In this document: in pieces, positions 21,030 through 64,000 of the stretch
How positions within the stretch are numbered: position 1 is the stretch's first letter
Layout of the letters: each line of letters begins with the position of its first letter
Made by a program: the position numbers and the translations under genes
NCBI GenBank assembly: GCA_041659225.1
Contig: JBAZYR010000005.1
Coordinates: 7,282 to 71,281 of the forward strand
DNA from: Candidatus Staskawiczbacteria bacterium
GTDB lineage: Bacteria; Patescibacteriota; Minisyncoccia; Minisyncoccales; Staskawiczbacteraceae
DNA length: 64,000 nucleotides
Reading direction: 5' to 3'
The notes under the pieces: model-generated
Databases searched by the model: none
What the model saw: only the letters and a program-made list of their open reading frames with translations
Told to the model about the DNA's origin: nothing

Positions 21030-21032
21030 CCC

Positions 21033-21061
21033 TTGACGTGCTTTTGATAGTATGATATAAT
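21033..21061 (+). promoter_or_regulatory. sigma70-like promoter TTGACG-17-TATAAT upstream of the secretin-like gene
   Basis: TTGACG at 21033-21038. 17-nt spacer. TATAAT at 21056-21061. AGGAG RBS 8 nt before ATG 21122. Confidence 0.55.
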
Positions 21062-21121
21062 ATATTTGTTGACTTCGCGTGGAGTCACGATAGTGTGTTC
21101 GTTGACATAGGAGTCTGTAAG

Positions 21122-22531
21122 ATGAAGCGAGGATGTTTTTACTACGTATCGGCCTTCATTGTTGCTTTCGCCATCGTCGGTTCGGCGATGGCTCAGCAAT
21201 CGACAAGCGCCCCTGCGGGCGCCGTGGCCAGCGATGGCAAAGTCGTTATCGCCGGTCAGCCGGGTGATTACAACATCATCTCGAGTGACGGTCAGTTAAC
21301 GATGCAGAGTTACGAAGTAACCGGGGTGTCTGTGGAAAGTAAGAGCACGCTGTACAAAGCGTTCCATAAGCTCCTGTCGAAAGACGGGCGTGGCGGGAGT
21401 GCCGAGGTGGCGCCGCTCACTCGGAACGGTAAGGAAATCATTCTTCTCATCGTAGCCGCGACACCCGAGATGCAACGTTCAATCGCGAAAACCGTTGAGC
21501 GGATCAACTCGGGAACCGTCGGCGCTTTCTGCTACACCCCAAAAAATGTGGTGTTCATTCCGAAGTATCGGTCGGCCGAGTCAATCGCTGCGGCTTTACG
21601 CGTGGAGATAACCAACATTGGTGTTCTCTACGTTGACCCGATTCTGAACGCGATAACGATCGAGGATGACGCCACCTACGTGGACTGGCTGGTCAATTAC
21701 GCACAAGAGTTTGACTCGCCACCTCCGCAGATTACGGCCATACTGCGTCTTGTCGCCATTGACAAGAACAATGACAGCAGTGTCGGAACGGATTGGGGTG
21801 CTCTGCTTGATGGACTTCCACCGTCGATTTCGCTAAGTATCGGCGGTGAACGTCAGATCTTATCGCGCTCGGGCGAAGTAAGCGTCGCCAACGGTGATCC
21901 GAGCCTTGCCCTGACAGGTTCGAAGCAAAGGCTTTCGCACCTGCCCATAACGAGTTTTTCTGCGGCGGTTAACGAGATTTCGCCGCAGGCGGTAGGAGCC
22001 TTCTTCAGTTATCTGGAAACAAAGGGCGTGTGTCGGATTCTCAACACCGCCGACATTAATGTGGTCAACGGCTCGCCGACGGTCGTAAGCACGGAAGTGA
22101 GTATGCCCGTCACCGCCACAGTCTCAAGCGAGACCGGCGGCAAGCTTCGCCAGGAAGTTTCGGTTTTAGAAGGTGTTAAGATTACGATCAGCGGAAGTTT
22201 GGCCACAATCGGCCATCGCCTGAATGTTCAGGCGAGCAGTACATCGGTGGTGAGTTATACTCGCACCGGCCTTCCGCTCATCGCGACGAGTACTCTTGAC
22301 ACCGCCGTCCAGCTGCCGCGCAACCGCACAATCACCTTATCGGGGTTGTCGCGGCAGAAGGAGGTCACGGTAACACACAAGCCTCCGGTACTCGGAGACT
22401 TGGATGTCTTGAACCTTTTCTCAAAAAAGGTCACCGAAACCAGGGAATGGAAACTGTATATTTGCATCACGGTGGTTGACCCGCCGGTTGCAACTCCAGC
22501 GACCACGAACCCTTCGGTTTCGGTCAATTGA
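21122..22531 (+). CDS. secretin-family protein (GspD/PilQ-like), short form, in a GC-elevated gene
   Basis: Signal peptide MKRGCFYYVSAFIVAFAIVGSAMAQQ. Secretin N-domain-like PQITAILRLVAID. C-terminal secretin motif GLSRQKEVTVTHKPPVLGDLDVLNLFSKK (cf. vPxLGdIPvLGxLFr). Visibly higher GC than the flanks. Confidence 0.55.
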   Translation: MKRGCFYYVSAFIVAFAIVGSAMAQQSTSAPAGAVASDGKVVIAGQPGDYNIISSDGQLTMQSYEVTGVSVESKSTLYKAFHKLLSKDGRGGSAEVAPLTRNGKEIILLIVAATPEMQRSIAKTVERINSGTVGAFCYTPKNVVFIPKYRSAESIAAALRVEITNIGVLYVDPILNAITIEDDATYVDWLVNYAQEFDSPPPQITAILRLVAIDKNNDSSVGTDWGALLDGLPPSISLSIGGERQILSRSGEVSVANGDPSLALTGSKQRLSHLPITSFSAAVNEISPQAVGAFFSYLETKGVCRILNTADINVVNGSPTVVSTEVSMPVTATVSSETGGKLRQEVSVLEGVKITISGSLATIGHRLNVQASSTSVVSYTRTGLPLIATSTLDTAVQLPRNRTITLSGLSRQKEVTVTHKPPVLGDLDVLNLFSKKVTETREWKLYICITVVDPPVATPATTNPSVSVN

Positions 22532-22591
22532 CCGTTTCCTCGAACACAAACAACCAAGCCCGGTGGCTATCATGCTATCGGGCTCTTTCTT

Positions 22592-22620
22592 TTGACGTAA
22601 ACAGATTTCTGGTGTATAAT
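22592..22620 (+). promoter_or_regulatory. sigma70-like promoter TTGACG-17-TATAAT with TG extension, upstream of typA
   Basis: TTGACG at 22592-22597. Spacer ends in TGGTG. TATAAT at 22615-22620. ATG at 22632. Confidence 0.55.
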
Positions 22621-22631
22621 AAGGTTTTGTT

Positions 22632-24458
22632 ATGAATAAAATACGAAACATCGCAATAATCGCCCACGTTGACCACGGAAAAACCACTTTGGTGGACGCT
22701 CTTTTGCGTCAGTCAAAAACCGCAATGAGCAAAGACCGGGCAAATCAGGACTGTATTATGGACAGTAACGAGATAGAAAGAGAGCGGGGGATTACCATTT
22801 TTTCTAAAAACGCATCCGTTTACTATAACGATACTAAGATAAATATAATCGATACTCCGGGCCATGCAGATTTTGGCGGAGAAGTTGAACGGGTTTTGAA
22901 TATGGCTGACGGCTGTCTGCTTTTGGTTGACGCAAAAGAAGGACCAATGCCCCAAACAAGATTTGTTTTGAAAAAGGCGTTGGAAATGGGTCACAAGATT
23001 ATTGTTGTGATTAATAAAATTGATAAGGATGGAGCCCGTCCCGAATATGCCTTAGAAGCAACAATGGAACTATTTTTAGAATTAGGCGGGCATGATCAAA
23101 CATTGAGTTTTCCGGTGATTTACGCGTCCGGAAGAGAGGGAAAAGCTGGTAAAGTGGCAAATATTAGCAAAATGGAGGATATTTTGCCGATATTCGAAGA
23201 AATTATCCAGCACATACCTTCGCCGATAGGAGATTCAAAAAAGCCTTTGCAAATTTTAGTTACTTCCATAGCTGGAGACGACTTTAAAGGAAGAATTGCT
23301 ATCGGCAGAGTTTACAACGGAGTTGTAAAAGCTAATCAGGAGGTGATGCATATAAACAGAGCGGGGGAGCAGACAAAGTGCAAATTAGTTTCTCTTATGA
23401 CTTTTGCCGGACTTGGTAAAATTGAAAGCGCTGAAGTTTCGGCCGGTGACATTGTTGCCATCGCCGGGATACCCGATGTAACGATTGGGGAAACAATAAC
23501 TGATCCGTTGGATCCGCAAGCTTTACCTTTGATTAATATTGAAGAGCCAACCGTAAAAATGACCTTCATGGTTAACGATTCTCCTTTTGCCGGCAAGGAG
23601 GGGGAATACCCAACCTCCAGGCAGATACGGGAAAGGTTACACAAAGAATTGGAAACCGATGTTGCTTTAAGGGTTGACGATACGGATGACGGAAAATGGA
23701 TTGTGTCAGGGAGAGGGGAATTGCACCTTGCCATTCTAATCGAAAGAATGCGCCGGGAAGGTTATGAGTTCCAGGTCTCCAGGCCTCAAGTGATTACGCG
23801 TGAAATTAACGGCAAGCAAATGACGCCTTTTGAAAAGGTCTTTATTGAAGTCCCTGAGAAATATCATGGGACGGTGATACAGAAATTGGGAGCCAGAAAA
23901 GGTGAAATGATTGAGATGAGAAACGTGGATAGTACAGTATTTTTAGAATTTGTGATTCCTACGAGAGGGCTTTTGGGATACAGAAGCGAATTTCTAACTG
24001 ACGCAAAGGGTTTAGGAATAATGAATACAGCTTTTTATCAATATCAAACAGATCCTGGAAATTGGAAAGAAAGAGCCCAAGGATCTTTGATTTCTCACGA
24101 AACTGGGCCTACTAATCTTTACGGTTTGAGAAACGTGCAGGATAGGGGAGTATTATTTTTCGGCCCAGCGGTGTTGGTTTACGAAGGCCAGGTTGTGGGT
24201 CAGAATTCACGTCCTAATGATATCCGAGTAAATGTTTGCAAGGAAAAACAGCTGTCGAATATGAGGTCAAAAGGAGAAGGGGTATCTGTACATTTTAACA
24301 CTCCAAAGACCATGGGGCTGGAGGACGCTTTGGAATATATTGGAGACGATGAATTAGTTGAAGTTACGCCGAAGAATGTACGAATAAGAAAAGTATACTT
24401 AGACGATAATGATCAGAGAAGGGCTGATAGAAAGGAGAGATCGGGAAACGCCGGATAA
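22632..24458 (+). CDS. typA: translational GTPase TypA/BipA
   Basis: [17 protein letters not shown]1 motif, DTPGHADF and NKIDK motifs. 608 aa EF-G-like architecture without the G' insert. Confidence 0.9.
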
Positions 24459-33545: not shown

Positions 33546-34292
33546 ATCCTGAGAGACTTTCGAAAGTCGCTTTACGCTGTCGCGTTCAGCGATTTTTTGT
33601 TAATATATATAGCAATCTCTTGACAGGTTTTACAATCCATGCTATCGTATTACTATACTTTACGATTATGCCGAGGATAGAAATTGCTGACTTTCCAATG
33701 AACTACTCGGGATAAATTCACGATTAGTTCTTTGGATGGTTGGCAGGCTCGCTTTTAAAGGTGAGCTGTCCGCTATCCTACAGGCCGCGTCCGACAGTTG
33801 GTGGGCGAGCGAACATAGACTCGAGGGTTTCCAAAAAATTAGGGCAATGCTAGTTGAGTCGCCGACGGCTTTCCACGTCGACGTGATACTCTCGCGTTGT
33901 GGATCTTCGGTGCAACGGGTGCCGAAACCTAGGCAGCGGTCAAGGGCCTACCCGAAAATCTTGACTGGGAACCCACCCACCAACTGTCACTTGTTCATTG
34001 AAAACAAAAGTAGAAACAGAACTTCGCGCTATCGTTCGCGTGAACGAAAGACGAAGTTTTCTTACTGAGGAGTACACTTTATGCGCACCCTTCGCCACCC
34101 GGTCATGTTTGCGATTATCTTCTGTGCGCACCGCCGGCACCGCCACGGTCAGCCCTGACCACGTCGGCACGGGCCCGCTAGCGCCCGAATCAAGATAGTC
34201 CTATGGATGGGCTGATTCGGGTTCTGGCGAAAGACCCAAGAGGAGGAACACATATGTTCCCCAAGGACCCTCCGTTCTACTAAAGACAAACG

Positions 34293-34342
34293 AGGGCAGG
34301 AACGTCTCATGGCCGAGGACGCATTCCTGCCCCTCTTTTTTT
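34293..34342 (+). terminator. rho-independent terminator (GGGCAGGAA...TTCCTGCCC + TCTTTTTTT)
   Basis: 9-bp perfect stem arms (GGGCAGGAA / TTCCTGCCC) followed by a T7 run. Confidence 0.55.
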
Positions 34343-34354
34343 ACATAAATATCC

Positions 34355-34382
34355 TTGACAAATCTCAGTATTTTATTATAAT
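34355..34382 (+). promoter_or_regulatory. sigma70-like promoter TTGACA-16-TATAAT for the nfeD-flotillin operon
   Basis: TTGACA at 34355-34360. TATAAT at 34377-34382. Confidence 0.5.
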
Positions 34383-34515
34383 AAGCACACTAAAGGCAAG
34401 CGGACTTGCCCGAAGAGTTCGTTGACAAGTTGGAAGGAGAGTCGAACAAATGAAATAAAATTCGCATATCGTATCGGTTTGTAGACGCAGGCCATGAAAC
34501 GAAAGGAGACAGGCC

Positions 34516-35046
34516 ATGTTGGTGTTCTTTACGGTTGCTTTGATCGCATTTTTGTACGTGGTGCTGGGATTTATTCTCGGCCACGCCCATGACGTCGGCC
34601 ATGACATTCTAAGTCATGACGCGGATCATGAGGGTGCCGATGGCCACATGATCAGTATTTTCTCGACGCGAGTAATCGCCACCTTTATGATGGCTTTTGG
34701 AGCTGCTGGAGGAGTTTTCAAGTTTTACAATTTCAACTATCCTCTTTCATGCCTTGGTGGCATCGGCGCCGGCATAGTCGTGTCTATTCCCATTTATTTC
34801 TTACTGAATTTCATCGCGAAACAACAATCGAATTCTTTAGTGTTGACATCCTCTTTAGTCGGACTTTCTGGAGTTACGGAAACGGCAATGGAGGGGAATA
34901 TCATGGGCGAGGTTGCGGTGTTCGCGCTGGGCCGGCGTAACATTTACCAAGCCGTCTCTCGCTTGGGTAAGCCCATCGCCAAAGGATCGGCCGTGCGCGT
35001 GGTGAGAACCATGGGAAGTGACTTGGTTGTGGAAGTTCTGGCCTGA
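34516..35046 (+). CDS. NfeD-like membrane protein (short form, C-terminal OB-fold)
   Basis: Three N-terminal TM helices. C-terminal LGKPIAKGSAVRVVRTMGSDLVVEVLA matches the NfeD beta-domain. Sits upstream of an SPFH gene. Confidence 0.55.
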   Translation: MLVFFTVALIAFLYVVLGFILGHAHDVGHDILSHDADHEGADGHMISIFSTRVIATFMMAFGAAGGVFKFYNFNYPLSCLGGIGAGIVVSIPIYFLLNFIAKQQSNSLVLTSSLVGLSGVTETAMEGNIMGEVAVFALGRRNIYQAVSRLGKPIAKGSAVRVVRTMGSDLVVEVLA

Positions 35047-35084
35047 GTCGCGGAATCGCGACCGAAAGATAAGGAGAAGAGATT

Positions 35085-36752
35085 ATGATATCAGCGGTAG
35101 ACATCGCTCACACATTGGGGCAGTATTTGATCCCCATACTCGTTATACTGTTCTTCATCGCCGTCATCATCATGCTACGCGTGATGGTGAGCCGCTACCA
35201 GAAGATCCCGCCCAATAAGGTGGCGATCATCTTCGGACGCGGCACCAAGGTTGGGGGTGAGGGACAGATCCAGGGATGCAAGGTCGTCAGCGGCGGAGGC
35301 GTATTCGTCTGGCCAGTGTTCCAGTCGATCGACTACATGGACACCGCGGCCTTCCGAATGGCCATCAACGAAACGGGCGTCCCCAACAAAGAGAACGTGG
35401 GGATTAACGTTGCGGGTGTGGCGGTCTGCAAGATATCCACCTCACCCGAGGATCTACAGAGCGCTGCGATGTCCTTTCTCGGCCAGTCGCAGGCCCAGAT
35501 CCAGGAGACCATCTCCAGCGTCCTCATCGGCCATTTGCGTTCCATCATCGGTAAGCTGGACATCGACGGAATCCTTCGGGATCGCGATTCCTTCAACCGC
35601 ATGGTGGTGAACGAGTCGAACCCCGAGTTGAAGCGCATGGGGATCCAGATCGTCACCCTGGTCATTCAGGAAGTCAGTGATGAGCACGGCTACATCGCCG
35701 CGTTGGGTAAACGTGCGGTGGCCGAAGCCGTCAGGGATGCCGATATCAAAGTCGCACAGGCGCAAGCAGCGACGAGAATGTCGGTCAGCCAAGCCCAGCG
35801 AGAAGCGTCGGTTGTCGAGGCTCAGAATGCCGTTGCGATTGCTGATGCGGAAAAGGACCGCGACATCAAACGCGCTACCTTCAAGGCCGCAGCCGACACG
35901 GAGTTGGCCTTGGCTAACCAAGCCCTGGCCATTGCCACCGCGGCACAGGAGCAAATCCTGCGCGTTGCTCAGGCGGATCGGGATACAGCCGCAGCCGACG
36001 CACAAACCAAGGTCCAGGAGGCCGAGGCAAAGCGCATGGAGCAACAGCTCCAGGCCACGGTGATCAAGCCGGCAGAGGCCGAAAAGTCAGCGGCTATCAT
36101 CAAGGCCGAAGGGCTGAAGCAGGCTGCGATCCTCGAAGCCGAGGCACAGGGTCAAGTCGTGATTTGCAAAGCCGAAGGCGATGCAACTGCGGCGAAGAAA
36201 CTGGGTGAAGGTATGGCAGCGCAAACGCTGGCCACTCTCACTGCCAAGGCTCAGGGCGAAGCCGCCGTGACGGAGCAAGCCTTACTGGCAAAGGCCAAGG
36301 GCGAAGCCGCTCAGAAAGGCCTCGTTCTCACAGCCGAAGCCGAGGGCACGAAAAAGCTGGCGGACGCGCTGGCTCAGATGACCGAATCAGCCCGGCTGAT
36401 TCTGATTTTGGACCGGTTGCCGATACTGATGGATCGGGGCGGCGAAGCAGCCTCAAAGGTTGCACAAGCCGTATTTTCCAGCGTTGCGGCACCGTTCGGC
36501 CAGATCGACAGCCTGCGGATCGTCGACATGGGCGGTAACGGCAAAGCGCTCGAAGGGTTAGGCGATATTGTGCCCAACACCGTCTTCAAGTTCCTCGCCG
36601 GCATGCAAGCCCGCGGGATCGACATCAAGAAGGTTCTCGCCAAGCTCGGCATCGACGCCGACGAGATCACCAGTATGCTGAACGAGCTGGGATCGACCAT
36701 TCGACCGGTCGTGGCAGCCGGAGATCTCGTGTCGGACTCCGATCCGGCATAA
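35085..36752 (+). CDS. flotillin-like SPFH/band-7 protein
   Basis: N-terminal TM. SPFH core. Long Ala/Glu/Lys/Gln-rich coiled coil (AEAQ repeats). 555 aa. GC-elevated. Confidence 0.8.
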   Translation: MISAVDIAHTLGQYLIPILVILFFIAVIIMLRVMVSRYQKIPPNKVAIIFGRGTKVGGEGQIQGCKVVSGGGVFVWPVFQSIDYMDTAAFRMAINETGVPNKENVGINVAGVAVCKISTSPEDLQSAAMSFLGQSQAQIQETISSVLIGHLRSIIGKLDIDGILRDRDSFNRMVVNESNPELKRMGIQIVTLVIQEVSDEHGYIAALGKRAVAEAVRDADIKVAQAQAATRMSVSQAQREASVVEAQNAVAIADAEKDRDIKRATFKAAADTELALANQALAIATAAQEQILRVAQADRDTAAADAQTKVQEAEAKRMEQQLQATVIKPAEAEKSAAIIKAEGLKQAAILEAEAQGQVVICKAEGDATAAKKLGEGMAAQTLATLTAKAQGEAAVTEQALLAKAKGEAAQKGLVLTAEAEGTKKLADALAQMTESARLILILDRLPILMDRGGEAASKVAQAVFSSVAAPFGQIDSLRIVDMGGNGKALEGLGDIVPNTVFKFLAGMQARGIDIKKVLAKLGIDADEITSMLNELGSTIRPVVAAGDLVSDSDPA

Positions 36753-36820
36753 GCTGAGTTGGGGAGGCGAGGAGACAATCTTCTCGCCTCCCTCTCTCGG
36801 TATAAAGAAGGAGAGATGGC

Positions 36821-37390
36821 ATGCAAAAAGCCCGCGAACAAGTATCACCACCACTAGTGGTTGTGAGTGAACCGCCGAAAACCGGTGGCGGCGAGGCCTT
36901 AACGCCCGGAGCCGCCCAGTTCTATTCCGCGGTTGTCAACCCACAGCCAACCGCCGTGGTTATTCATTGCAGCGATCCAAGATTTCAAACCGCTTTCCGC
37001 GAATTCATTGAAACGGAATTAGGCCTGTCCGATGGACAGTATATTCCTTTCGTGATCGCGGGAGGAGCTGGAGTGTTGAGCCGACCTGAGGCCCTGCCGA
37101 AGGAATTCCGCTTCATGCGGGAGCGCCTGGAACTCTTCCGAGAGCACTTCAAATCGATAAGGCGGGTAATCCTGATCAACCATGAGGACTGCGCATACTA
37201 TCATAGTTTGTGCGAAAAAAGCTGGGCTCTCCGAACTCTCGCGCACCTTTTGCCGCGGGATGACATGAAGCTCATCGCTCAGGTTTTTCATCGCTTGCTG
37301 TCCCACCTTGGGATGCAAGTGGAACTCTATCACGCAAAGTTCTCCGATGACGAACGCACGCGAATCGTGTTTGAGCGAATAGAGCAATAG
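36821..37390 (+). CDS. beta-carbonic-anhydrase-fold protein, paralog of 31109..31570
   Basis: HCSDPRF (CxDxR), FVIAGGAGVL and ILINHEDCAYYH (HxxC). AAGGAG RBS. Confidence 0.45.
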   Translation: MQKAREQVSPPLVVVSEPPKTGGGEALTPGAAQFYSAVVNPQPTAVVIHCSDPRFQTAFREFIETELGLSDGQYIPFVIAGGAGVLSRPEALPKEFRFMRERLELFREHFKSIRRVILINHEDCAYYHSLCEKSWALRTLAHLLPRDDMKLIAQVFHRLLSHLGMQVELYHAKFSDDERTRIVFERIEQ

Positions 37391-37449
37391 AAATAACTTT
37401 CAAACCCCAAAGGACTCTAACCTGCGGGGTCTTCTTTTATACCAAATCA

Positions 37450-37479
37450 TTGACACATATTCTGAGAGGGGGATATAAT
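37450..37479 (+). promoter_or_regulatory. sigma70-like promoter TTGACA-18-TATAAT driving a ~520-nt unit without a long ORF
   Basis: TTGACA at 37450-37455. TATAAT at 37474-37479. The unit ends at the terminator at 37970-38015. Confidence 0.45.
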
Positions 37480-37773
37480 ATAATAATTGTTGCGCTATTT
37501 GCTTCGCAATGTGCGAGCAAAGCGCTCCGAAGGTCGCTCGTTTACAAGGAGTACGGTGTCATGTGCAAGATCGTTTTGTTTCGCGGGATTTGCAGTGGCC
37601 AGAGTGCGGACAAGATCATCGTCAGCACGACGGTCGTGGCGGCGCCGCTCCTAGCCTAGTTGGGACATGGGAGCAGACCAGTCGTCTGTAGGCAACGCGC
37701 ACACATTCAAAACTGGCATCGCTAAGTTGCGAGGCCACCCGAGTGGAAGACCACACACAAGGAGAACCTGACA

Positions 37774-37920
37774 ATGACCAACACAAAGTGGCCGACTGGC
37801 CACGGGACGACCAACAGCAAATGCTCACGGCGCAAGAAGAACCTGGCGGGGCATAACTCCAGAAGCAAGGGGCACGCCGCCGCCCATCACATTCACGCAC
37901 ATAGCCAGCACACAGGCTGA
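37774..37920 (+). CDS. candidate small His-rich protein (48 aa) with canonical RBS
   Basis: AAGGAG at 37759-37764, 9 nt before ATG. Peptide MTNTKWPTGHGTTNSKCSRRKKNLAGHNSRSKGHAAAHHIHAHSQHTG. Below the 60-aa ORF-track threshold. Confidence 0.25.
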   Translation: MTNTKWPTGHGTTNSKCSRRKKNLAGHNSRSKGHAAAHHIHAHSQHTG

Positions 37921-37969
37921 TGACAAGGCCTAGCCTGGTGAGGGCGCACAGAGGCGCCGTATAGGCGCA

Positions 37970-38015
37970 GGGGAGCAGGTAAGCTATAAAGGGCTTTCCT
38001 CGCTCCCTTTTTTTA
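37970..38015 (+). terminator. rho-independent terminator (GGGAGC...GCTCCC + T7)
   Basis: GGGGAGCAGG...CCTCGCTCCC hairpin followed by TTTTTTTATTTG. Confidence 0.5.
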
Positions 38016-44834: not shown

Positions 44835-44861
44835 GTCCAAAACCTGCTCTTTTTACATGGT

Positions 44862-45563
44862 ATGGTTATATGGTACAATATGTATATGAAAACAATAATA
44901 AAAAAAGAAGTCGTGCGACTTCGTAAAATAGGAAAGACATATAGTGAGATTTTGCAAATAATTAGTCCGCAGGTAGCGAAAAGTACAATCTCAAACTGGT
45001 GTCGCAATATAATATTGACGCCGACACAGGAAGCGAGAATAAGCAATAAGATAGAAATAAATCTTGCAAATGCACAGTTGCGGTCGCTGGCTGTACGCCG
45101 GTTGAAAAGGAAGGATTATTTGGATTCAGTTGAACATCGGGTTAAGCACCTTAAAAATTACATTAAAAAGAAAGATGCAGCAAAGATTGCGCTTGCCATG
45201 TTATACTTAGGCGAGGGGTCAAAAGGTTTACACAGGGGATCGTTATGTTTTGGCAATTCCGACCCGGTTGTGATAAGTTTATTCTTGAGATTATTAAGGA
45301 AATGTTATAGTATAGACGAGAGGAAATTTCGTTGCACCGTCCAATGCAGGGCAGATCAGGATACTACCAGTTTGAATAAATTTTGGAGAGGAATCACGAA
45401 AATTCCGAAATCACAATTTTATAAGGCGCGAATCGACCCAAGAACTACCGGCAAGGTATCGAAAAAAGGTAAGTATAAAGGAGTTTGCAGAATAGACTAT
45501 TTTTCTGCCGATATTTTTACCGAGTTACAAATCATCCCACAGGTCGTTTTTAAGGGCTCATAG
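44862..45563 (+). CDS. LAGLIDADG-like endonuclease with N-terminal HTH, free-standing
   Basis: KIALAMLYLGEGSKG resembles the single LAGLIDADG motif (LAGFIDGDGS) with GEG in place of GDG. N-terminal HTH-like KTYSEILQII...STISNW. The 3' end overlaps tRNA-Ala by 10 nt. Confidence 0.4.
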   Translation: MVIWYNMYMKTIIKKEVVRLRKIGKTYSEILQIISPQVAKSTISNWCRNIILTPTQEARISNKIEINLANAQLRSLAVRRLKRKDYLDSVEHRVKHLKNYIKKKDAAKIALAMLYLGEGSKGLHRGSLCFGNSDPVVISLFLRLLRKCYSIDERKFRCTVQCRADQDTTSLNKFWRGITKIPKSQFYKARIDPRTTGKVSKKGKYKGVCRIDYFSADIFTELQIIPQVVFKGS

Positions 45564-47457: not shown

Positions 47458-47495
47458 AAGCCCAGAGATTATATCAAAGGGCTCTTTTGTTATTC
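47458..47495 (+). terminator. terminator hairpin (AAAGCCC...GGGCTCTTTTG) after guaA
   Basis: AGCCC/GGGCT stem followed by TCTTTTG. Confidence 0.45.
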
Positions 47496-47593
47496 CAAAG
47501 ACATATTAAATCATTAGTCGTAAATTTTCCCAGGTATTTAATTCCACTATTAATTGGTTCCAACTAAGTCGCAAGGAGTCCACAAAACCAAAA

Positions 47594-47629
47594 AGCCATC
47601 TTTTAATTAAGATGGTTTTTTGGTAGAAT
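47594..47629. repeat. intergenic hairpin + extended -10 module, copy 1 (AAGCCATCTTTTAATTAAGATGGTTTTTTGGTAGAAT)
   Basis: Hairpin with TTAATTAA loop and T-run, immediately followed by TGGTAGAAT (TGn -10). 40 nt upstream of the 47669 gene. Confidence 0.6.
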
Positions 47630-47668
47630 AGGGTAATTAAATTTCTTTATTTATAACTAAAAAAATCG

Positions 47669-48049: not shown

Positions 48050-48077
48050 GATAAGTTATATAGGATACATCCTAAAA

Positions 48078-48119
48078 GCCCCCTTTTAATTAAGGTGGTT
48101 TTTAGGTAGAATAAGAAGC
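48078..48119. repeat. intergenic hairpin + extended -10 module, copy 2 (AAGCCCCCTTTTAATTAAGGTGGTTTTTAGGTAGAAT)
   Basis: Same architecture and loop as copy 1. 20 nt upstream of the serpin gene. Confidence 0.6.
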
Positions 48120-49661: not shown

Positions 49662-49677
49662 GCAAGATATTTCACGA

Positions 49678-49713
49678 AACCGTCTTTATTTTAAAGCGGT
49701 TTTTTGGTAGGAT
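49678..49713. repeat. intergenic hairpin + extended -10 module, copy 3 (AAACCGTCTTTATTTTAAAGCGGTTTTTTGGTAGGAT)
   Basis: Same architecture. 7 nt upstream of ATG 49720, so the downstream mRNA would be leaderless or nearly so. Confidence 0.55.
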
Positions 49714-49719
49714 ATACGC

Positions 49720-56505: not shown

Positions 56506-56994
56506 TTATACGGATTGAGCGAATGTTTCAGCCATTGAGAGATACTTTGCTTTCTTGGGCCTGCTTTTGTATTTTGCGATATCCTTATGAATCGCCATTA
56601 GTTTTTGGAAATCACCGGGAATCCACGCAGCTAGGATTTTTCCTTTGTTCTTATAAATAATTTCAACTGCCTTGGACCAAGCTTGGAAATCATTTTTCTT
56701 TTTCCCTGATAAGGCGTGTTTTTTAAAATACGGAACAACGCATTCATAGACCTCAGTTATATTCTGAACAGAATAACGGGCTTGATTTTTAACAACATGA
56801 ACATTCCCGCATTGCAATGTATCACGGACAGATTCCAACACATTACTCTGGGATGCGTTTTTTGTGATAATAAATTGAACCTTCCATCGGTAGTAAGTAG
56901 GGGAGTTGGTCCTATTTGCTTTAGTATCTTTCCGGAATTGAAGGTCAAAACAGCCTTCTTGGTTTACTATTTGTACAATATTTATTTTTTCCAT
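56506..56994 (-). CDS. LAGLIDADG-family (LAGLIDADG_1-like) homing endonuclease, free-standing
   Basis: N-terminal IVQIVNQEGCFDLQF (cf. LAGFIDGEGCF). Downstream profile L..V...L.CG.V and C-terminal YFKKHALSGKKKNDFQAWSKAVEII...K (cf. F.kYPL.t.K..DF..W..v) match the LAGLIDADG_1 domain. 162 aa. Confidence 0.6.
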   Translation of the reverse strand: MEKINIVQIVNQEGCFDLQFRKDTKANRTNSPTYYRWKVQFIITKNASQSNVLESVRDTLQCGNVHVVKNQARYSVQNITEVYECVVPYFKKHALSGKKKNDFQAWSKAVEIIYKNKGKILAAWIPGDFQKLMAIHKDIAKYKSRPKKAKYLSMAETFAQSV

Positions 56995-57081
56995 ATATTC
57001 TTATTATATCATCAATATTTTTTGACGACTAGTCGCACAATATTATATAACCTGCACAGAAAGAGTAGGGGAACACTAAAA

Positions 57082-57724: not shown

Positions 57725-57778
57725 ACAAGCACCACTAAGTATATGCGCCAAAAGTCCCCGGACCCAGGCGCTGTTTTT

Positions 57779-57915
57779 TTGTTCGCTTAACATATATGTG
57801 AGGAGCTAATTGTGTCGACCTGAAACTTCGTAATACGGCTGTTGTGCGAAAATAATATAAATTCCTGAACCCGTTACGCCAACATTTTAAGGCGGTTTTT
57901 AGTTTGACAAACATA
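57779..57915 (+). repeat. conserved intergenic motif, copy 1 (core ACATATATGTGAGGAGCTAATTGTGTCGACCTGAAACTTCGTAATACGG at 57790-57838) with downstream TTGACA
   Basis: Core is near-identical to copy 2 at 61816-61864 (one mismatch in 49). It shares TTGTTCGCTTAACATATAT with copy 3. Looser homology continues through GGTTTTTAGTTTGACA. Confidence 0.7.
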
Positions 57916-58010
57916 GCGGTTTGCCATATTGTACAGTGTAATGGCGTGTGCCATATCACAGCTTTTTTAAAACACAATTTCGCTGCCACATGGCAGAGAG
58001 GAGGCTCGAG

Positions 58011-58559
58011 GTGAAGAATTTCATCGTACTAGAAGGCTTGAGCGGAAGCGGAAAAACAACCATCGGTAAACTATTAGCCGAACGTATGGGGGCTGATTTT
58101 TACAAAACTCCGCCGGCAGTTTTCCGGTCTATTCGGGATGAAGTCGATCGGACCGCCGGCACGATGTCCCGTTTCTTTTTCTATCTGTCAGGAACTCTTT
58201 TATCTTCTCAAGAGATCTCACGGATTCTGGAGAATAGAGACGTGATTTGCGACCGATATATTTACACCACCATATGTTATCATCTGGCCATAGGGCTGGA
58301 CTTCGAAATACCGGCCGCGCTTTTCCAGCAAATCGTCATGCCCAACCATTTTTTTCTGGTAACCTGTCGCGAAGAAACTAGAATTAAAAGACTGAGCGCA
58401 AGGGGGATGACCGCAAACGACATAGCCGAAAGAAAAGAGGGAATTGAAGCGCGATTCATCGCCGAGTACAGGAAATTCAAGCCGGTTGAGATCGACAACT
58501 CAGGGAACAGCCCCGAGTATGCTGTTGAGCAAATCATGGGCATCGTCGGAAGAGGTTGA
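58011..58559 (+). CDS. thymidylate-kinase-like nucleoside monophosphate kinase
   Basis: GAGGAGG RBS, GTG 58011. (V)KNFIVLEGLSGSGKTT P-loop in the classic Tmk context. DRY motif (DRYIYTTICYH). 182 aa. Confidence 0.6.
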   Translation: MKNFIVLEGLSGSGKTTIGKLLAERMGADFYKTPPAVFRSIRDEVDRTAGTMSRFFFYLSGTLLSSQEISRILENRDVICDRYIYTTICYHLAIGLDFEIPAALFQQIVMPNHFFLVTCREETRIKRLSARGMTANDIAERKEGIEARFIAEYRKFKPVEIDNSGNSPEYAVEQIMGIVGRG

Positions 58560-58563
58560 AACC

Positions 58564-59169
58564 ATGAAAAAGATTATCTTAACAGGTGGAACATCCGGCG
58601 GGAAAACAACAATTCTAGAGAGGTTAAAAAAACGCTTCAATCGCAATGCCGTTTTTGTCCGAGAGACAGCAACACTGTTACTCGAAGGCGGCTATCCAAA
58701 ACCGGGTGATTTATTGCCCTGGAGCCAAGACTGGCATTTATTATTTGAAGATGCGGTCTTCTATCTGCAGAGATCTTTGGAAGATGCCAGTTCATTAGTA
58801 GCACGACACCAAAACTGCGACTTGATTATCTGCGACCGCGGCCTTCTCGACGTGGCCGGACATCTGCCCGGAGGAAGGGCACAGTTCTGCTGCCGGTACG
58901 ACACGACGGAAGAAGAATCTCTGTCGCGATATGATGTCGTCATTCATTTAGTCTCATTTGCCATGTTCGACCCTACCGGGTATTCCGCAGTGGCGGAAAC
59001 TAGGTGGGGGAACTCACATCTTTCATCACTCGAGTACGCTCATTGTACTGAAAGGGCAACGTTAGACGCTTGGTCTAATCACAAAAGAAGATATATAGTG
59101 GGCGGTCAAGGAAACATCGATCGTAAAACAGCGGAAGTAATCGAAATCATTGAGCGCGCTATTGCATGA
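58564..59169 (+). CDS. AAA_28/NadR-like P-loop kinase/ATPase
   Basis: MKKIILTGGTSGGKTTILERL resembles the ribosylnicotinamide-kinase (NadR C-terminal/AAA_28) N-terminus. ATG 58564 directly follows the upstream stop. 201 aa. Confidence 0.45.
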   Translation: MKKIILTGGTSGGKTTILERLKKRFNRNAVFVRETATLLLEGGYPKPGDLLPWSQDWHLLFEDAVFYLQRSLEDASSLVARHQNCDLIICDRGLLDVAGHLPGGRAQFCCRYDTTEEESLSRYDVVIHLVSFAMFDPTGYSAVAETRWGNSHLSSLEYAHCTERATLDAWSNHKRRYIVGGQGNIDRKTAEVIEIIERAIA

Positions 59170-59329
59170 ATACGCGCTCTTTTCTTAAATCAGTATCTGG
59201 CGACTTGTAATTTAGGCGCAGAAAGGGCAAAATATATTAACGAATAATTGGAAACTGCCCCCTGTCAGAGACGGTTTCCGCCCTCTATGCCGAACCGGAG
59301 AAACGAAGATAAAGGTAACAAGTTTTTGT

Positions 59330-61036
59330 ATGCAGAAAAATAATATTTTAGACATTTATAAAAAAATCTATGACCTACCGGAACTTTCTCAAACCGAAAA
59401 GGTGGATTTTAATTTTTTCCGATTATGCGAAAAAAACTATAATTTTGTCGTAGTCAGCGCGTACAATGAAAAACATGAATTTCTTCTGACTAGAGATCTT
59501 AACAAAGATATCGGTTGGGAATTAGTTGGAGGGTATATAAAAGACGGGGAAAACATTATAGACGCCGCAAACCGGGTCGTTTTAAAGGAGACAGGCCTCA
59601 TCATAGATGAGTTGCAGCCCATAGCAATTATTAATAATAATTTCAAATTTAATAATGGGATTATCACCCATCGGGGAATCGCATTTATTGCGTTATCTCG
59701 GAAGAAGATCAAACCACAGCCGGAAAACATCAAAGTGATATACACAGAAGATGCGCCCGACAAAATGGCATATTACAATAAAGAAATATTCAAAATTGCG
59801 AAAGAAATATTAACGATAAAAAACTTTAACCCGCCATATGATGAAATCGACAGCGCTAAAAAGTTTTTACCGTTGCACCTAATTAATAAGTATTTTATTA
59901 GTATAGTCGGACAGATATCATCCAGAAAAATAAAGAAACGTATACTAGGCCTGATCTCTTCAAACCCCAAGTCGATAATAGATGTATGTTGCGGTGACGA
60001 CAGCTTTATTTTCCAGCTTGAGCGGCGGTACAAGCCCGAAATTTTTGTCGCCAATGACATCTCCTGGAAAACTTTGCTACTATTAAAAAATCGGAACAAA
60101 AAGAGCGACATAATTTTTACTAATCACAACGTGATTGATTTGCCCTTTCAGGATAAGTTTGACCTGGTGATATTTAAAAATAGTCTTCATCATATAGATA
60201 GGGGGGATCAAGCCGATTTAGTGAAAAACTTTTCTGACATATCGAAAGAGCTAATAGTTGTCGATATTGAAGATCCTAACAGGTCTAATTTCCTTTCGAA
60301 AATATGGCACTATTACTATGTATATTTTCTTGGAGACGTAGGAGGAAATTTTTTCACATATGGCGAGTTCAAGGAATTTATAAAAAACAACATAAAAGGC
60401 AAGGAAATAAAATTCGGAGTCATTGACACTATTAAGGGAAGATATTTCTATTCGGTTCTGAGAGAAAAGGCCAACATGGAAGAGGTAGAAATAAAAGTTA
60501 AACTGAATGACAGCTCGGTTAAGGAGGTGCGGAAAGAGTTATACAAATTAGGTGCGATACTAGACGGTGAGGACGAAGAAAGGGACACGTATTTTACTGC
60601 CCCACATCGGGATTTTATTAAAACAAAAGAGTGTCTTAGGATACGGGAGAAGGGTGCCTATACCGAACTCACATATAAAGGGCCGACTACAAAAGAAATG
60701 CTGAAGAAAAAACAATTTTGGAAGCCTGAAATCAACATTCCATTCAAAGGTAACCGGGATGATGTGGAAACGATGCTCGAGATGTTAAGCTTTAAAAAAG
60801 TGGTTGATTTCACCAAACATCGAGAAAAATTCTTGTTAGGCGCGAAAACCATAACCATCGATAAAATAGGTGATTTAGGATATTTTCTCGAGATAGAAGA
60901 AGTTGTTAGAACAAAGAAAGATAGGGAAAGGGTTTTGGAGGAAAATATTGAATTTCTGGATGTTTTTAAGCTATCTAAAAAAGATATTGTTGAGAAGCCT
61001 TATCGGGACCTAGTTATTGAATCTAATAAAAGCTAG
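59330..61036 (+). CDS. tri-domain protein: Nudix hydrolase-like (degenerate Nudix box) + class I SAM-dependent methyltransferase + CYTH (triphosphate tunnel metalloenzyme) domain
   Basis: Nudix box GGYIKDGENIIDAANRVVLKETGL (G..5..E..7..R.V..KE.GL, two catalytic Glu replaced). MTase motif I IIDVCCGDDS and motif DLVIFKNSLHH. CYTH N-terminal EVEIKVKL plus LRIRE and TELTYKGP. 568 aa. Confidence 0.65.
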   Translation: MQKNNILDIYKKIYDLPELSQTEKVDFNFFRLCEKNYNFVVVSAYNEKHEFLLTRDLNKDIGWELVGGYIKDGENIIDAANRVVLKETGLIIDELQPIAIINNNFKFNNGIITHRGIAFIALSRKKIKPQPENIKVIYTEDAPDKMAYYNKEIFKIAKEILTIKNFNPPYDEIDSAKKFLPLHLINKYFISIVGQISSRKIKKRILGLISSNPKSIIDVCCGDDSFIFQLERRYKPEIFVANDISWKTLLLLKNRNKKSDIIFTNHNVIDLPFQDKFDLVIFKNSLHHIDRGDQADLVKNFSDISKELIVVDIEDPNRSNFLSKIWHYYYVYFLGDVGGNFFTYGEFKEFIKNNIKGKEIKFGVIDTIKGRYFYSVLREKANMEEVEIKVKLNDSSVKEVRKELYKLGAILDGEDEERDTYFTAPHRDFIKTKECLRIREKGAYTELTYKGPTTKEMLKKKQFWKPEINIPFKGNRDDVETMLEMLSFKKVVDFTKHREKFLLGAKTITIDKIGDLGYFLEIEEVVRTKKDRERVLEENIEFLDVFKLSKKDIVEKPYRDLVIESNKS

Positions 61037-61145
61037 AGATTTAATCCACCCTCTGTTTGTTGACAAATAGTAGCTTTGTAATATAATAACAAAGCCCTTT
61101 GAAATATAAGAAATGTCTTTCCAGATAAAAGTGAAAGGAGACAAC

Positions 61146-61625
61146 ATGTTCTATTTCTTAAGCGATGACCTTACAAAACTACGGGAAATAATCAAAAAAG
61201 TAAGAGAAGAACTCGACGCAGCTCTCAAAAGCATTGGAGACGCCTGCGAAGGGGAGTCCAATACTTGGCATGATAACTTCGCGTATGAAGAAGGCCAGCG
61301 CCAGGTGGACATGGTATCAAGACGATATCAGGAGCTGCAGACGATGTTTATGAACGTTGCTGTCATAGACCCCCCAAAGGATAATCTCAAAGTTCAGATC
61401 GGCCACACAGTTGTTGTTAAAGACCCTTACGAGAAAGAAGATCAAGTATACAGGATTGGCAGCTATATGTGCTTTCAGGAAGACGAAAATGAAGATGGAG
61501 GTGATCAGGTTATCTCCTATGCCGCACCGCTTGGGCAGCTTTTCATGGGCGCTAAAGTCGGCGAATATAGAGGAGGAAACATCGGTGGAAGACCCAGAAC
61601 GTTCAAGATTATACAAATCAGATAG
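61146..61625 (+). CDS. GreA/GreB-family protein, second paralog (Rnk/Gfh-like)
   Basis: AAGGAG RBS. C-terminal FKBP-like VQIGHTVVV...ISYAAPLGQLFMGAKVGE parallels GreA (V.iGs.V.v...s..SPlGrALiGkkvGd). Coiled-coil tip GDACEGESNTWHDNFAYEEGQ with an insertion. Confidence 0.55.
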   Translation: MFYFLSDDLTKLREIIKKVREELDAALKSIGDACEGESNTWHDNFAYEEGQRQVDMVSRRYQELQTMFMNVAVIDPPKDNLKVQIGHTVVVKDPYEKEDQVYRIGSYMCFQEDENEDGGDQVISYAAPLGQLFMGAKVGEYRGGNIGGRPRTFKIIQIR

Positions 61626-61805
61626 AATAAATATTTTTTATCCGTCATCGAATTTCCTTCACTCCAACAATAGTCCGAAATGAAAGTTTTGGGCTTTTTT
61701 CTTGTTCCGTCTAGTCCGGGCGGAAAGAGTGCTGAAGCGATACGCGCCTTTTCGAGAGCCAGTTAGAACTGAGCATAAAGACCAGATAAAATTAGTTAAA
61801 TAAAA

Positions 61806-61950
61806 ACTTCGGGAAACATATATGTGAGGAGCTAATTGTGTCGACCTAAAACTTCGTAATACGGTTTAGTTGTGCAATAGTCCAAGCCCCACCCATCAAC
61901 GCTGATACCAGGGGTTTAAACCGGCGAGAGGAGGTTTTTGGTTTGACACG
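61806..61950 (+). repeat. conserved intergenic motif, copy 2 (core 61816-61864) with downstream TTGACA and a 10-1-10 palindrome
   Basis: Core ACATATATGTGAGGAGCTAATTGTGTCGACCTAAAACTTCGTAATACGG. TTGACA at 61942-61947. Perfect palindrome ATTATTGTAA-C-TTACAATAAT at 61959-61979. Confidence 0.7.
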
Positions 61951-62031
61951 AAGAGTCCATTATTGTAACTTACAATAATCGTTGTTGTTTGACATTTTGT
62001 GCTGGGCGAAACTCTTTTGGAGGAACAGAAA

Positions 62032-62271
62032 ATGTCCTGGAACACCTTCGACGGCTTCAGTGTCAGCCGGGTCCACAGTTTCCGCGGTGGAAAGAACAAA
62101 GTGACGGGCAAGGGGAGTAAGGATCCCCGCGCCAAGTTGGTCGGCATGGAAAGATCCATGCGTGATATTATAGTTAGACTCGAAAGAGCGATGAGGATGC
62201 AGCAACGGGCTAACGCACCCAAACCGCGGGTCCGACCTGCATCTACCAGTTCCCGCCCCAAATACTACTAA
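62032..62271 (+). CDS. small basic protein (79 aa)
   Basis: GGAGG RBS 8 nt before ATG 62032. Lys/Arg-rich C-terminal half. Followed by the terminator GCCCC...GGGGC + T7 at 62310-62342. Confidence 0.35.
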   Translation: MSWNTFDGFSVSRVHSFRGGKNKVTGKGSKDPRAKLVGMERSMRDIIVRLERAMRMQQRANAPKPRVRPASTSSRPKYY

Positions 62272-62340
62272 GTACATTTTCTACCCCACCAGATAAGCTA
62301 TTTCGCCATGCCCCAGAGATGACATCAAGGGGCTCTTTTT

Positions 62341-62376
62341 TTGTTCGCTTAACATATATTTGAGGAGCTACGGGCC
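62341..62376 (+). repeat. conserved intergenic motif, copy 3 (partial: TTGTTCGCTTAACATATATTTGAGGAGCTA)
   Basis: Immediately follows a terminator T-run, as copy 1 does. Lies between convergent gene ends (62271 and 62414). Confidence 0.6.
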
Positions 62377-62413
62377 ACAAAGTAAGTGTGTTCTAAATTT
62401 TTCTGTTTTATCA

Positions 62414-63346
62414 TCACTTTACATCCCTTCTTTCAAGTATACCAAAACCGTCGGCGATTGCAGCGCATAGAAAGTTTTCGAGCTGGCTTTGGTCTTTTTT
62501 TGTTTGGGCGTTATAGAGATAAGTGTAATATAGTTGTTTTTGTTGCTGCTTGATTATTGCCGGGGCAAAATTGTACTCCAAAAGCATGGCACTCATCAGT
62601 AAACGCCCGACACGGCCGTTGCCATCAGAAAACGGGTGGATTTTCTCAAACTTACTGTGCACGCTAGCAGATAGAGCGACAATGTCTTTTGTCTTACTTC
62701 GAGCCTCTTCGATGACTTCCGTTATTAATTTTGGGACGCTTAAATGGTTTGCCGTAGGTAAATTGATGCCTCTAATTCTTACGCCATGATTTCTGTATTT
62801 GCCGGCGTCAGGCCGGACTCCATTCATAAGTATGATGTGGAGTTTAAGGATTAACTCTTCGTTAATTTCTTCTCTCTCTGAGATATAGTCAAATAAATAA
62901 TTTAAGGCAGTCTGATGATTTTTTGCCTCCAGCTGTTCGGTTAAGCTTTTATTTGGCAAGGCAACATTGTCAAAGATAACTGCAGCTGTGTCCTTCTCAT
63001 CAAGCGTGCTTCCCTCTATGCTGTTGCTGTTATAAGTCAGCTTTAGGATAAACTGGTCTCGTATATCCGGGTTGGCTAAAATCTCATCAATAACTCGTTT
63101 GTATTGTGACGACTTTTGCTGTAGCGCCTGTTTTTTTGCAACCAGTTCATTGTCAGGGATTACTTTCTGGCCCGTAACTTCTAAAAATAGCTCATCAATT
63201 GCGGCTTGCTTCTTTGCTCGGGGAGTAGATCTTCCTTTCCACCAGCTATTGAAGGTAGCAAAAGACACGCCGAGCCTTTCAGCTAATTTAGTCTGAGTCA
63301 GTCCAAGCATCCTTCTTATTATCTCTAATTTTTGTCTTATTGTCAT
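62414..63346 (-). CDS. Fic/DOC family protein with N-terminal XRE-type HTH
   Basis: Fic motif HPFSDGNGRVGRLLM (HxFx(D/E)GNGRxxR). N-terminal HTH LGLTQTKLAERLGVSFATFNSW. 310 aa. Confidence 0.85.
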   Translation of the reverse strand: MTIRQKLEIIRRMLGLTQTKLAERLGVSFATFNSWWKGRSTPRAKKQAAIDELFLEVTGQKVIPDNELVAKKQALQQKSSQYKRVIDEILANPDIRDQFILKLTYNSNSIEGSTLDEKDTAAVIFDNVALPNKSLTEQLEAKNHQTALNYLFDYISEREEINEELILKLHIILMNGVRPDAGKYRNHGVRIRGINLPTANHLSVPKLITEVIEEARSKTKDIVALSASVHSKFEKIHPFSDGNGRVGRLLMSAMLLEYNFAPAIIKQQQKQLYYTYLYNAQTKKDQSQLENFLCAAIADGFGILERRDVK

Positions 63347-63578
63347 AATATTCGTATTTAATGCCTACGACCCCATATTACCAAACTTTATAAAGTTAGT
63401 CAAATATGGTAAAACTATATAAAGTTATCATTTTTAACGGACGGGCCCTAGGAAACTTCGCGAAACATATATTTTGCGACGTCTTAAAAATTAGCTTTAC
63501 TTGGATTATTTATAGTTGTACAGTTATATAAGTATATAGAATTTATGCAGTACCCAAAATTGCTGCTTTTCGTCTACT

Positions 63579-63986
63579 ATGCATATAACCAACCTAAGTA
63601 TTAAAAACTTTAGAAATTTCGCTGATTTTAGTATAGATTTAAATTCATTTACTTTAATTATCGGCGAAAACAATACCGGGAAAACAAATTTACTAGAATC
63701 TCTTTGCTTGTTATTCGGACAGGAGATTACAATGTTTAGGAAAAGAATGTTGACAATGGATGATATTAATTATCAGTCTATTAAGGAATTTAAGGAAAAA
63801 GTAAAAAATTCAGAAATTGACGTTGAATCTATTATTTTTCCAGAAGTGAAAATTGAGGCTATTATGACGGATTTTAATGACGACCAGGCATCCATAGTCG
63901 GCGACTGGTTTATTGATGAAAATCTTGAAAAAGCTAAGCTCACCTACATTTTTTCTCTGAGACCAGGGTGGCAAAAAAAAAATTGA
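63579..63986 (+). CDS. OLD-family (AAA_15/AAA_21-like) ATPase N-terminus, apparently truncated or frameshifted directly after an A10 homopolymer
   Basis: ITNLSIKNFRNFADFSIDL...IIGENNTGKTNLLESL is the characteristic OLD/RecF-like N-terminal ATPase start. The ORF stops at TGA 63984-63986, immediately after the A10 run at 63971-63980, after only 135 aa. Family members are about 500-600 aa. Confidence 0.5.
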   Translation: MHITNLSIKNFRNFADFSIDLNSFTLIIGENNTGKTNLLESLCLLFGQEITMFRKRMLTMDDINYQSIKEFKEKVKNSEIDVESIIFPEVKIEAIMTDFNDDQASIVGDWFIDENLEKAKLTYIFSLRPGWQKKN

Positions 63987-64000
63987 GTGGCTGAAGGAGC

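Follow-up and report, generated by a model that had tools for sequence, protein, structure and literature searches.

A dif site consists of two 11-bp half-sites around a 6-bp centre (PMC5357621). In the attachment sites of the gonococcal genetic island (GGI) and of TLC, one arm and the centre are kept and the other arm is divergent, and the xerS gene adjoins its site, difSL (PMC5357621). Recombination of plasmid dif-like (pdif) sites has been seen between sites with identical 6-bp spacers (PMC13141974), and chromosomal examples of dif modules in Acinetobacter are also reported (PMC12907356). Here we describe four directly oriented 28-bp repeats, J1 to J4, in a 64,000-nt stretch of Candidatus Staskawiczbacteria DNA (contig JBAZYR010000005.1, positions 7,282 to 71,281 of the forward strand; hereafter the window). 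We read them, with a probability of about one half, as accessory dif-like (Xer-type) sites left by, or enabling, Xer-mediated insertion and excision of gene cassettes. The host belongs to the candidate phyla radiation (CPR, or Patescibacteria), whose genomes are very small and whose gain and loss of accessory genes are poorly understood. No description of dif sites or of Xer-exploiting elements in CPR bacteria was found in the literature searched.

Four directly oriented repeats with an invariant centre

A first-pass annotation of the window had reported three copies of an intergenic motif. Its 49-nt core at 57790-57838 does recur at 61816-61864 with one mismatch (G>A), where dinucleotide shuffles lead to an expectation of 0 matches. 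The third copy, the 5' half of the core at 62341-62370, is also confirmed: with the T-run included, 57766-57808 and 62328-62370 are 93% identical over 43 nt. A fourth, partial copy at 63455-63482 had been overlooked. The pattern TTCGNNNAACATATATKT unites all four, with exactly four matches and 0 mismatches, all on the plus strand between 57.8 and 63.5 kb, the new one at 63457-63474; shuffles gave a mean of 0.43 matches, and 1 of 100 reached four. Common to 4/4 copies, within 5.7 kb, is TTCGnnnAA-CATATA-T on the plus strand. Neither the remainder of the window nor the adjoining 18.6 kb of the 785-kb source contig holds a further copy (77 kb outside the copies).

All four copies parse into an 11-nt arm, a 6-nt centre that is always CATATA and a second 11-nt arm, 28 bp in total and directly oriented on the plus strand. 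This is the layout of a Xer/dif core site, two partly symmetric arms of ~11 bp about a centre of 6-8 bp. By direct reading of the sequence, J1 (57780-57807, plus strand) is TGTTCGCTTAA-CATATA-TGTGAGGAGCT, which joins an L1-type left arm to a degenerate right arm. J2 (61806-61833, plus strand), ACTTCGGGAAA-CATATA-TGTGAGGAGCT, has a left arm of the L2 type, and its degenerate right arm is that of J1. J3 (62342-62369, plus strand), TGTTCGCTTAA-CATATA-TTTGAGGAGCT, repeats the left arm of J1, matches the right arm of J1 and J2 at 10/11 positions and runs on into an unrelated flank. J4 (63455-63482, plus strand), ACTTCGCGAAA-CATATA-TTTTGCGACGT, is nearly symmetric: its arms are inverted repeats at 9/11 positions, it is the sole CATATA-centred dyad of at least 8/11 within 73 kb, and a DNA fold also recovers it as a hairpin. 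J1 to J3 behave as hybrid or degenerate sites, since their dyad symmetry is only 4-5/11.

A segment-by-segment identity table of flanks, arms and centre across J1 to J4 shows where similarity starts and stops. J2 and J4 agree at 10/11 positions in the left arm, at 3/11 in the left flank, which is background, and at 5/11 in the right arm. J1 and J3 agree at 11/11 in the left arm and 10/11 in the right arm, and again fall to background, 4/11, in the right flank. J2 and J3 share 6/11 of the left arm and 10/11 of the right; J1 and J2 likewise share 6/11 of the left arm, and have the right arm plus 31 further nt in common. Thus two left-arm types and several right-hand types are reassorted as 11-nt units around an invariant 6-mer. 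We take the 28 bp centred on CATATA, and not the entire 49-nt core, as the functional unit; the remainder of the core is common to J1 and J2 only.

The right flank of J1 (57808-57852, plus strand) has a counterpart only at J2, to which it is identical at 31/31 and then at 19/20 positions. It comprises an 18-nt spacer with a GTG-TCG-ACC-TGA mini open reading frame (mini-ORF), followed by a second, weaker site-like unit, ACTTCGTAATA-CGGCTG-TTGTGCGAAAA (57825-57852), which on its sequence may be parsed as a further site. The homologous flank of J2 (61834-61880, plus strand) includes ACTTCGTAATA-CGGTTTAG-TTGTGCAATAG, and its mini-ORF stops at TAA. We share the earlier view that the mini-ORF is probably incidental.

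A Xer-family recombinase gene at the likely replication terminus

A candidate cognate Xer-family recombinase is encoded in the genome, 8-14 kb from the J sites. This 324-aa tyrosine recombinase gene (window-equivalent 71629-72603, minus strand) is convergent with the genes of the adjoining defence island. Its product matches the XerD and XerC models over its full length at ~227 bits, below the equivalog cut-offs; its closest solved relatives are a XerA-like protein and XerD, with which the catalytic-region motifs align. The gene is 78-88% identical across more than 100 Staskawiczbacteria contigs and is therefore taken as a core housekeeping gene, not an island integrase. Cumulative GC skew climbs for 72 kb, peaks at ~72 kb (window-equivalent) and turns down exactly at xer, and gene orientation switches at the xer 3' end in 5/5 species. 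Because the skew peaks and gene orientation flips there, xer marks the likely terminus.

The xer loci of four other Staskawiczbacteria species (sp2 to sp5; L018, L021, L027 and L029), whose Xer proteins are 85-88% identical, were compared with this one. Common to 5/5 are MurD, FtsW, MurG, GltX, a small gene and xer on one side, and LAGLIDADG, (UppS, L27), CTP synthase, L9 and an S41 protease on the other. Between xer and LAGLIDADG lie different genes in each of the five species, often defence genes: one cold-shock gene in sp4; histidine-kinase-like, TPM and LemA genes in sp2; three unrelated genes in sp3; GmrSD-HNH, an EcoRI-type methylase and others in sp5; and ~15 kb in this genome. Since the interval differs in every species, it is a hotspot of gene turnover close to the terminus, and the J sites fall within it.

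When the relatives' loci were scanned with the J4 28-mer, two intervals proved to hold one intergenic CATATA site each, in the same orientation: ACTCCGCAGAA-CATATA-TTTTCCGACAA in sp2 and ATTTTGCAGAA-CATATA-TTTCGCGACAT in sp3, the latter with arm symmetry of 7/11. Each has 6/28 mismatches to J4, which dinucleotide shuffles reached in 0/300 and 1/300 trials, respectively. BLAST of the four relatives' xer loci returned short site matches only and no TGAGGAGCT arm, and a direct-repeat search of their variable intervals found no comparable arrays.

A second conserved sequence, site U, is present in 5/5 species between the xer promoter (TTGACA-17-TATTAT) and the xer ATG. It reads AC(n)TCG(G/C)TTTA-CCTACA-TTTTGCGAC(A/G)T and lies on the minus strand at L017 9957-9984 (window-equivalent 72630-72657) and at the same position in L018, L021, L027 and L029. 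A 22-nt block of it is invariant across the five species, and it has the right arm of J4 (TTTTGCGACrT). As is typical of dif, only the outer part of one arm is free to vary, and the rest of that arm, the centre and the other arm are fixed; site U also sits at the GC-skew peak, beside xer. It is probably the chromosomal dif of Staskawiczbacteria, or else a Xer autoregulatory site. U and not J4 is taken as the probable dif because it is conserved in a dif-like manner, lies at the skew switch and adjoins xer. A chromosomal dif is single-copy, conserved and at the skew switch; the J sites are present in four copies, lie 8-14 kb off and are lacking in sp4 and sp5, and it is site U that has these properties instead. 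J4 as the true dif was considered and rejected, since sp4 and sp5 are without a J4 site and the skew and orientation switch falls at xer and U. The CATATA sites are thus an accessory class, with related arms and a different crossover sequence.

A polar 15-mer, TTTTATTGTGCGACA, also recurs near the terminus in 5/5 species, over about +/-15 kb around xer. It lies on the top strand to the left of xer and on the bottom strand to the right, in ~23/25 strict matches by our tally. Copies here are at 57032-57040 (minus strand) in the window and, in window-equivalent positions, at 66932, 68405 and 71589 (plus strand) and 72936 and 73661 (minus strand), with many more in the relatives; none occurs in window positions 1-57000, and some copies lie inside coding regions. 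The polarity fits gene orientation as well as a signal aimed at U/xer in the manner of the FtsK orienting polar sequences (KOPS), and may reflect either. As to function, a KOPS-like signal, a half-site for Xer and a promoter element are all possible.

A possible route of cassette insertion

In the arrangement that we propose, the J sites bound three cassettes: B, four nucleotide-related genes; C, a 79-aa orphan; and D, a helix-turn-helix (HTH) Fic protein. The single nearby Xer-family recombinase of the host would bind the arms and exchange strands within CATATA. J4, near-symmetric, would presumably be a fully competent site, and J1 to J3 would be hybrids of a good left arm and centre with the degenerate right arm TkTGAGGAGCT. 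Circular cassettes, each with one site (left arm-CATATA-TkTGAGGAGCT), would have been inserted serially at a resident CATATA site, each insertion adding a hybrid junction and regenerating a competent site, now J4, at the end of the array. Any two direct sites could delete the intervening DNA as a circle. With CATATA in place of CCTACA, the J sites would form a compatibility group separate from chromosomal dif. Recombinase binding, strand exchange and mobility are all read here from sequence and remain putative. The left arm agrees at 7/11 positions, and the centre at 5/6, with the Bacillus subtilis dif, a lead that was not used as evidence.

Several points weigh against accessory Xer sites. 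The right arms of J1 to J3 are just 4-5/11 symmetric, and a 9/11 dyad such as that of J4 is by itself expected ~20 times by chance per 80 kb; it has weight solely because it falls exactly on the repeat. The right-arm sequence TTnTGCGAC, as part of the wider polar 15-mer that occurs near the terminus both inside genes and between them, may not be a recombinase arm. The stretch common to J1 and J2 far exceeds 28 bp, with 31 more nt near-identical and then a loose match over ~100 nt, and J1 and J3 have 14 nt of terminator in common; ordinary duplication of regulatory DNA therefore contributes, and on the sequences cassette ends have clearly been duplicated. Because the centres differ (CATATA versus CCTACA), the cassettes cannot have entered at the likely true dif; there is no CATATA site at the sp4 and sp5 loci, and the proposal does not account for how the first CATATA site arose. 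Searches of IMG/VR, the GTDB representatives and the JGI metagenomes yielded no donor element. The 20-mer AACATATATKTGAGGAGCTA had 0 matches in IMG/VR and one match each in the GTDB representatives and JGI metagenomes, attributed to chance because the flanks are dissimilar, and two further site patterns also had 0 matches in IMG/VR. The DNA scanned is ~10% of the genome, which limits the scope. Finally, binding, cleavage, excision products and insertion polymorphism are predictions of the proposal, and mobility is an inference.

It is possible, although we hold it only tentatively, that Staskawiczbacteria use a housekeeping Xer with private CATATA dif-like sites as a terminus-side platform for cassette capture. 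Such a platform would be integron-like in effect and Xer-driven and would assemble and exchange defence and orphan genes in genomes otherwise poor in mobile-element tools, with TTTTATTGTGCGACA as part of the same terminus machinery, either as a KOPS-like signal or as a half-site.

Terminators, promoters and alternative explanations

The first-pass annotation had placed each copy just after a terminator and had left a small RNA, a protein-binding site and a recombination site as options. The first statement is true of copies 1 and 3, each of which follows a GC-rich hairpin and a run of seven T residues, but with 2/4 copies it is not a rule. By RNAfold, GCGCC...GGCGC followed by T7 (57745-57780, plus strand) is the likely intrinsic terminator of a 115-aa gene, its last T being base 1 of J1, and GCCCC...GGGGC with T7 (62310-62342, plus strand), directly next to J3, probably terminates the 79-aa gene. 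A consensus terminator scan missed both hairpins because their loops exceed 8 nt. The looser homology downstream of copies 1 and 2 was also recovered: it runs via GGCGGTTTTTAGTTTGACA (57891-57909) and GGAGGTTTTTGGTTTGACA (61930-61948), and the alignment continues through GG(C/A)GGTTTTT(A/G)GTTTGACA to a common TATTGTA. The block read earlier as a promoter -35 element belongs to a good promoter in copy 1 (TTGACA-17-TATTGT, 57904-57932), but in copy 2 it stands 12 nt from TATTGT.

Elsewhere in the window, five intergenic modules of ~43 nt each combine a terminator hairpin with TTTTTTGGTAGAATA, an extended -10-like element (5207-5249, 44838-44880, 47588-47630, 48071-48113 and 49672-49714). A terminator-like hairpin at 47458-47506, 3' of a 542-aa gene, matches the terminator before J3 at 78% identity over 46 nt, the trailing TTTTGTT...ACATAT included; its sequence suggests a possible diverged relative of the L1 end.

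The alternative that survives best, though we judge it improbable as a full account, is that the copies are duplicated regulatory DNA, paralogous terminator-spacer-promoter modules that local duplication or gene conversion would have multiplied and that would have no role in site-specific recombination. J1 and J3 have terminator DNA in common outside the 28 bp, J1 and J2 have ~150 nt in common that include the TTGACA block and TATTGTA, copy 1 has its good promoter, and the genome has other families of repeated terminator/promoter modules, one with five copies. Yet duplication of this kind leaves unexplained why an invariant 6-mer is the exact point at which arm types reassort while flank identity is only background, why J4 is a dyad, and why similar sites occur in the intervals of other species with a related site upstream of xer; the 12-nt spacing in copy 2 also counts against it.

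Operator sites are a less probable alternative, in which neighbouring cassettes would be co-regulated by a transcription factor such as the HTH-Fic protein, whose gene lies between J3 and J4. Both J1 and J2 contain ACATATATGT, a perfect 10-bp palindrome, the divergent Fic/GajA promoter region includes J4, and an HTH_3 domain protein is encoded next to J4. However, half-sites 17 bp apart from centre to centre about an asymmetric centre would suit a tyrosine recombinase better than an HTH dimer, J1 and J3 abut terminators rather than promoters, and the relatives with CATATA sites show no Fic gene in the interval.

More doubtful still is a cis-acting or small RNA, possibly with the mini-ORF (encoding MST), in which the 3' half of the core would pair with the downstream GGTTTTTnGTTTGACA. 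RNAfold does pair both conserved blocks in both copies through G-U pairs, on the plus strand only; both substitutions between the copies preserve pairing, and the sole one in the core retains a stop codon (TGA>TAA). On the other side, copies 1 and 2 do not fold more stably than shuffles (z = +0.15 and -1.37; core alone, z > +1), and Rfam gives no match at the gathering threshold nor at E<=1. The core sits after a terminator and lacks a plausible promoter, the region is missing from copies 3 and 4, so that there are just two sequences, too few for covariation, and the 49-nt core is not conserved in the relatives examined. The locus thus offers neither a family match nor a stable fold with its own promoter and terminator, and of the three options left by the first-pass annotation the small RNA is not borne out. 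Recombination or protein binding is supported by the 11-6-11 dyad, the arm reassortment, the nearby xer gene and terminus and the relatives' sites.

That the sites belong to another enzyme, as attC sites of an integron type or as targets of the neighbouring LAGLIDADG homing endonuclease, is very improbable. The layout resembles a cassette array and the LAGLIDADG gene is kept at the interval edge in five species, but the recombinase scores 104 bits against an integron-integrase cut-off of 265, single strands of J1 and J2 do not fold as attC-like hairpins (z > 0), and sp4 and sp5 have the endonuclease and no CATATA site. Integron, homing-site and miniature inverted-repeat transposable element readings were all rejected. 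Collapsed or chimeric repeats are scarcely credible even in a metagenome assembly: the MEGAHIT source contig runs through all copies with unique flanks, and the repeats are taken as real because contigs of the independent runs SRR6484324 and SRR18595301 stop precisely inside them, as expected for assembly at k=31.

Cassettes and neighbouring genes

The order of the locus is LAGLIDADG, two small orphans, J1, cassette B, J2, cassette C, J3, cassette D and J4. The LAGLIDADG endonuclease gene (56506-56994, minus strand) is the outer landmark of the variable interval in 5/5 species; homing endonuclease genes do not usually show such conservation of a free-standing, single-domain gene at one interval edge in five species. 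The DNA from J1 to J4 contains no recombinase gene, and there are no replication, phage or transfer genes among the annotated genes of the cassettes.

Cassette B (57853-61805, plus strand) carries the promoter-like TTGACA-17-TATTGT, followed by thymidylate-kinase-like, AAA_28, NUDIX-methyltransferase-CYTH and GreA/B-C-terminal-only genes. The gene set (58011-61625 here) is present in other Patescibacteria at unrelated loci (L005 7201-11438; L008 8669-11635). In L005 the order is circularly permuted, GreA-like, x, kinase, AAA_28 and NUDIX versus kinase, AAA_28, NUDIX and GreA-like here, which is a further, weak hint in favour of the proposal. BLAST of the loci of NUDIX-methyltransferase-CYTH homologues (L005-L011) against all four copies found no motif, so that the motif is not tied to the cassette B operon. 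The kinase of cassette B matches the PADLOC candidate models PDC-M51B and VakA.

Cassette C (61881-62341, plus strand) contains a single gene for a 79-aa basic orphan protein (62032-62271) with its own terminator; the protein has no homologues except a shorter gene call of identical sequence. Cassette D (62370-63454, minus strand) encodes an HTH_3 and Fic protein (62414-63346) that matches the PDC-S04 and SoFic models. Most of the Fic ORF is flanked by an 18-nt inverted repeat, (C/T)TACGGGCCA(C/G)AAAGTAA, at 62368-62385 and 63160-63177, with identity of 16/18 (23/27 when extended). One arm of it begins in the right arm of J3 and the other lies within the coding region for Fic residues ~54-62.

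From J4 to xer extends a defence island (63579-64000, continuing into L016 1731-9579) with a complete Gabija pair (GajA, 628 bits; GajB, 379 bits), followed by a type II methyltransferase, RNase H, a Top1-type zinc ribbon, an Mrr-like nuclease and two small genes. Farther away in the window, G+C is 0.49-0.59 at 21000-23000 and 34000-38000, against 0.37-0.45 elsewhere, and these two stretches may be foreign DNA.

Comparison with known systems

Xer-exploiting cassettes and dif modules are known; on the recombination-site reading, those at this locus would be chromosomal, directly oriented and in a CPR host. If that reading is true, the logic of the integrative mobile elements exploiting Xer (IMEX) and of dif modules, as in Vibrio, Neisseria and Acinetobacter, operates in the CPR as well. 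The interval from xer to LAGLIDADG would then be a hotspot in which new accessory and defence genes could be predicted to occur, and the lineage would have concrete candidate sequences for its dif and accessory sites.

In effect the locus resembles an integron cassette array, a linear series of promoter-bearing and promoterless cassettes between recombination sites. Unlike an integron, it has no IntI-type integrase, no attI/Pc platform and no hairpin-forming attC. The single-recombinase Xer systems (XerS/difSL, XerH/difH and archaeal XerA/dif) likewise link the recombinase gene to a conserved site: U is next to xer in the way that difSL is next to xerS, the inner parts of the arms are CGAAA/TTTT as in difSL (TTTCCGAAAA / TTTTCTTGAAA), and the best solved relative of the 324-aa protein is XerA-like. 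Their sites, however, are single-copy and serve dimer resolution, whereas the J sites are multi-copy, absent from 2/5 species and off the skew switch.

Like the dif modules of Acinetobacter, which carry toxin-antitoxin, resistance and orphan ORFs, the cassettes are small modules between 28-bp Xer-type sites, and like pdif sites the J sites have an identical 6-bp spacer, CATATA in 4/4. The Acinetobacter modules are mostly plasmid-borne and use two recombinases, XerC and XerD, and their sites alternate in orientation (C and D modules), whereas the J sites are all direct.

IMEX such as CTX, TLC and VGJ in Vibrio cholerae and the gonococcal genetic island, with its site difGGI, differ from this locus in several respects. 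The cassettes here are gene sets of 0.5-4 kb in which no phage, plasmid or transfer genes are recognised; they are in a CPR bacterium, with just one Xer gene in the locality. IMEX have the crossover region in common with the host dif; here CATATA differs from the CCTACA of the probable chromosomal dif, and, apart from one another, the J sites find a match only in the sites of sp2 and sp3. Other features are alike. Like IMEX, the cassettes have no recombinase of their own and are bounded by direct dif-like repeats near the terminus; the junction sites J1 to J3 keep one arm and the centre with the other arm divergent, as do difGGI and the TLC site; and the array of sites recalls the tandem arrays that serial insertion produces in IMEX (PMC5357621).

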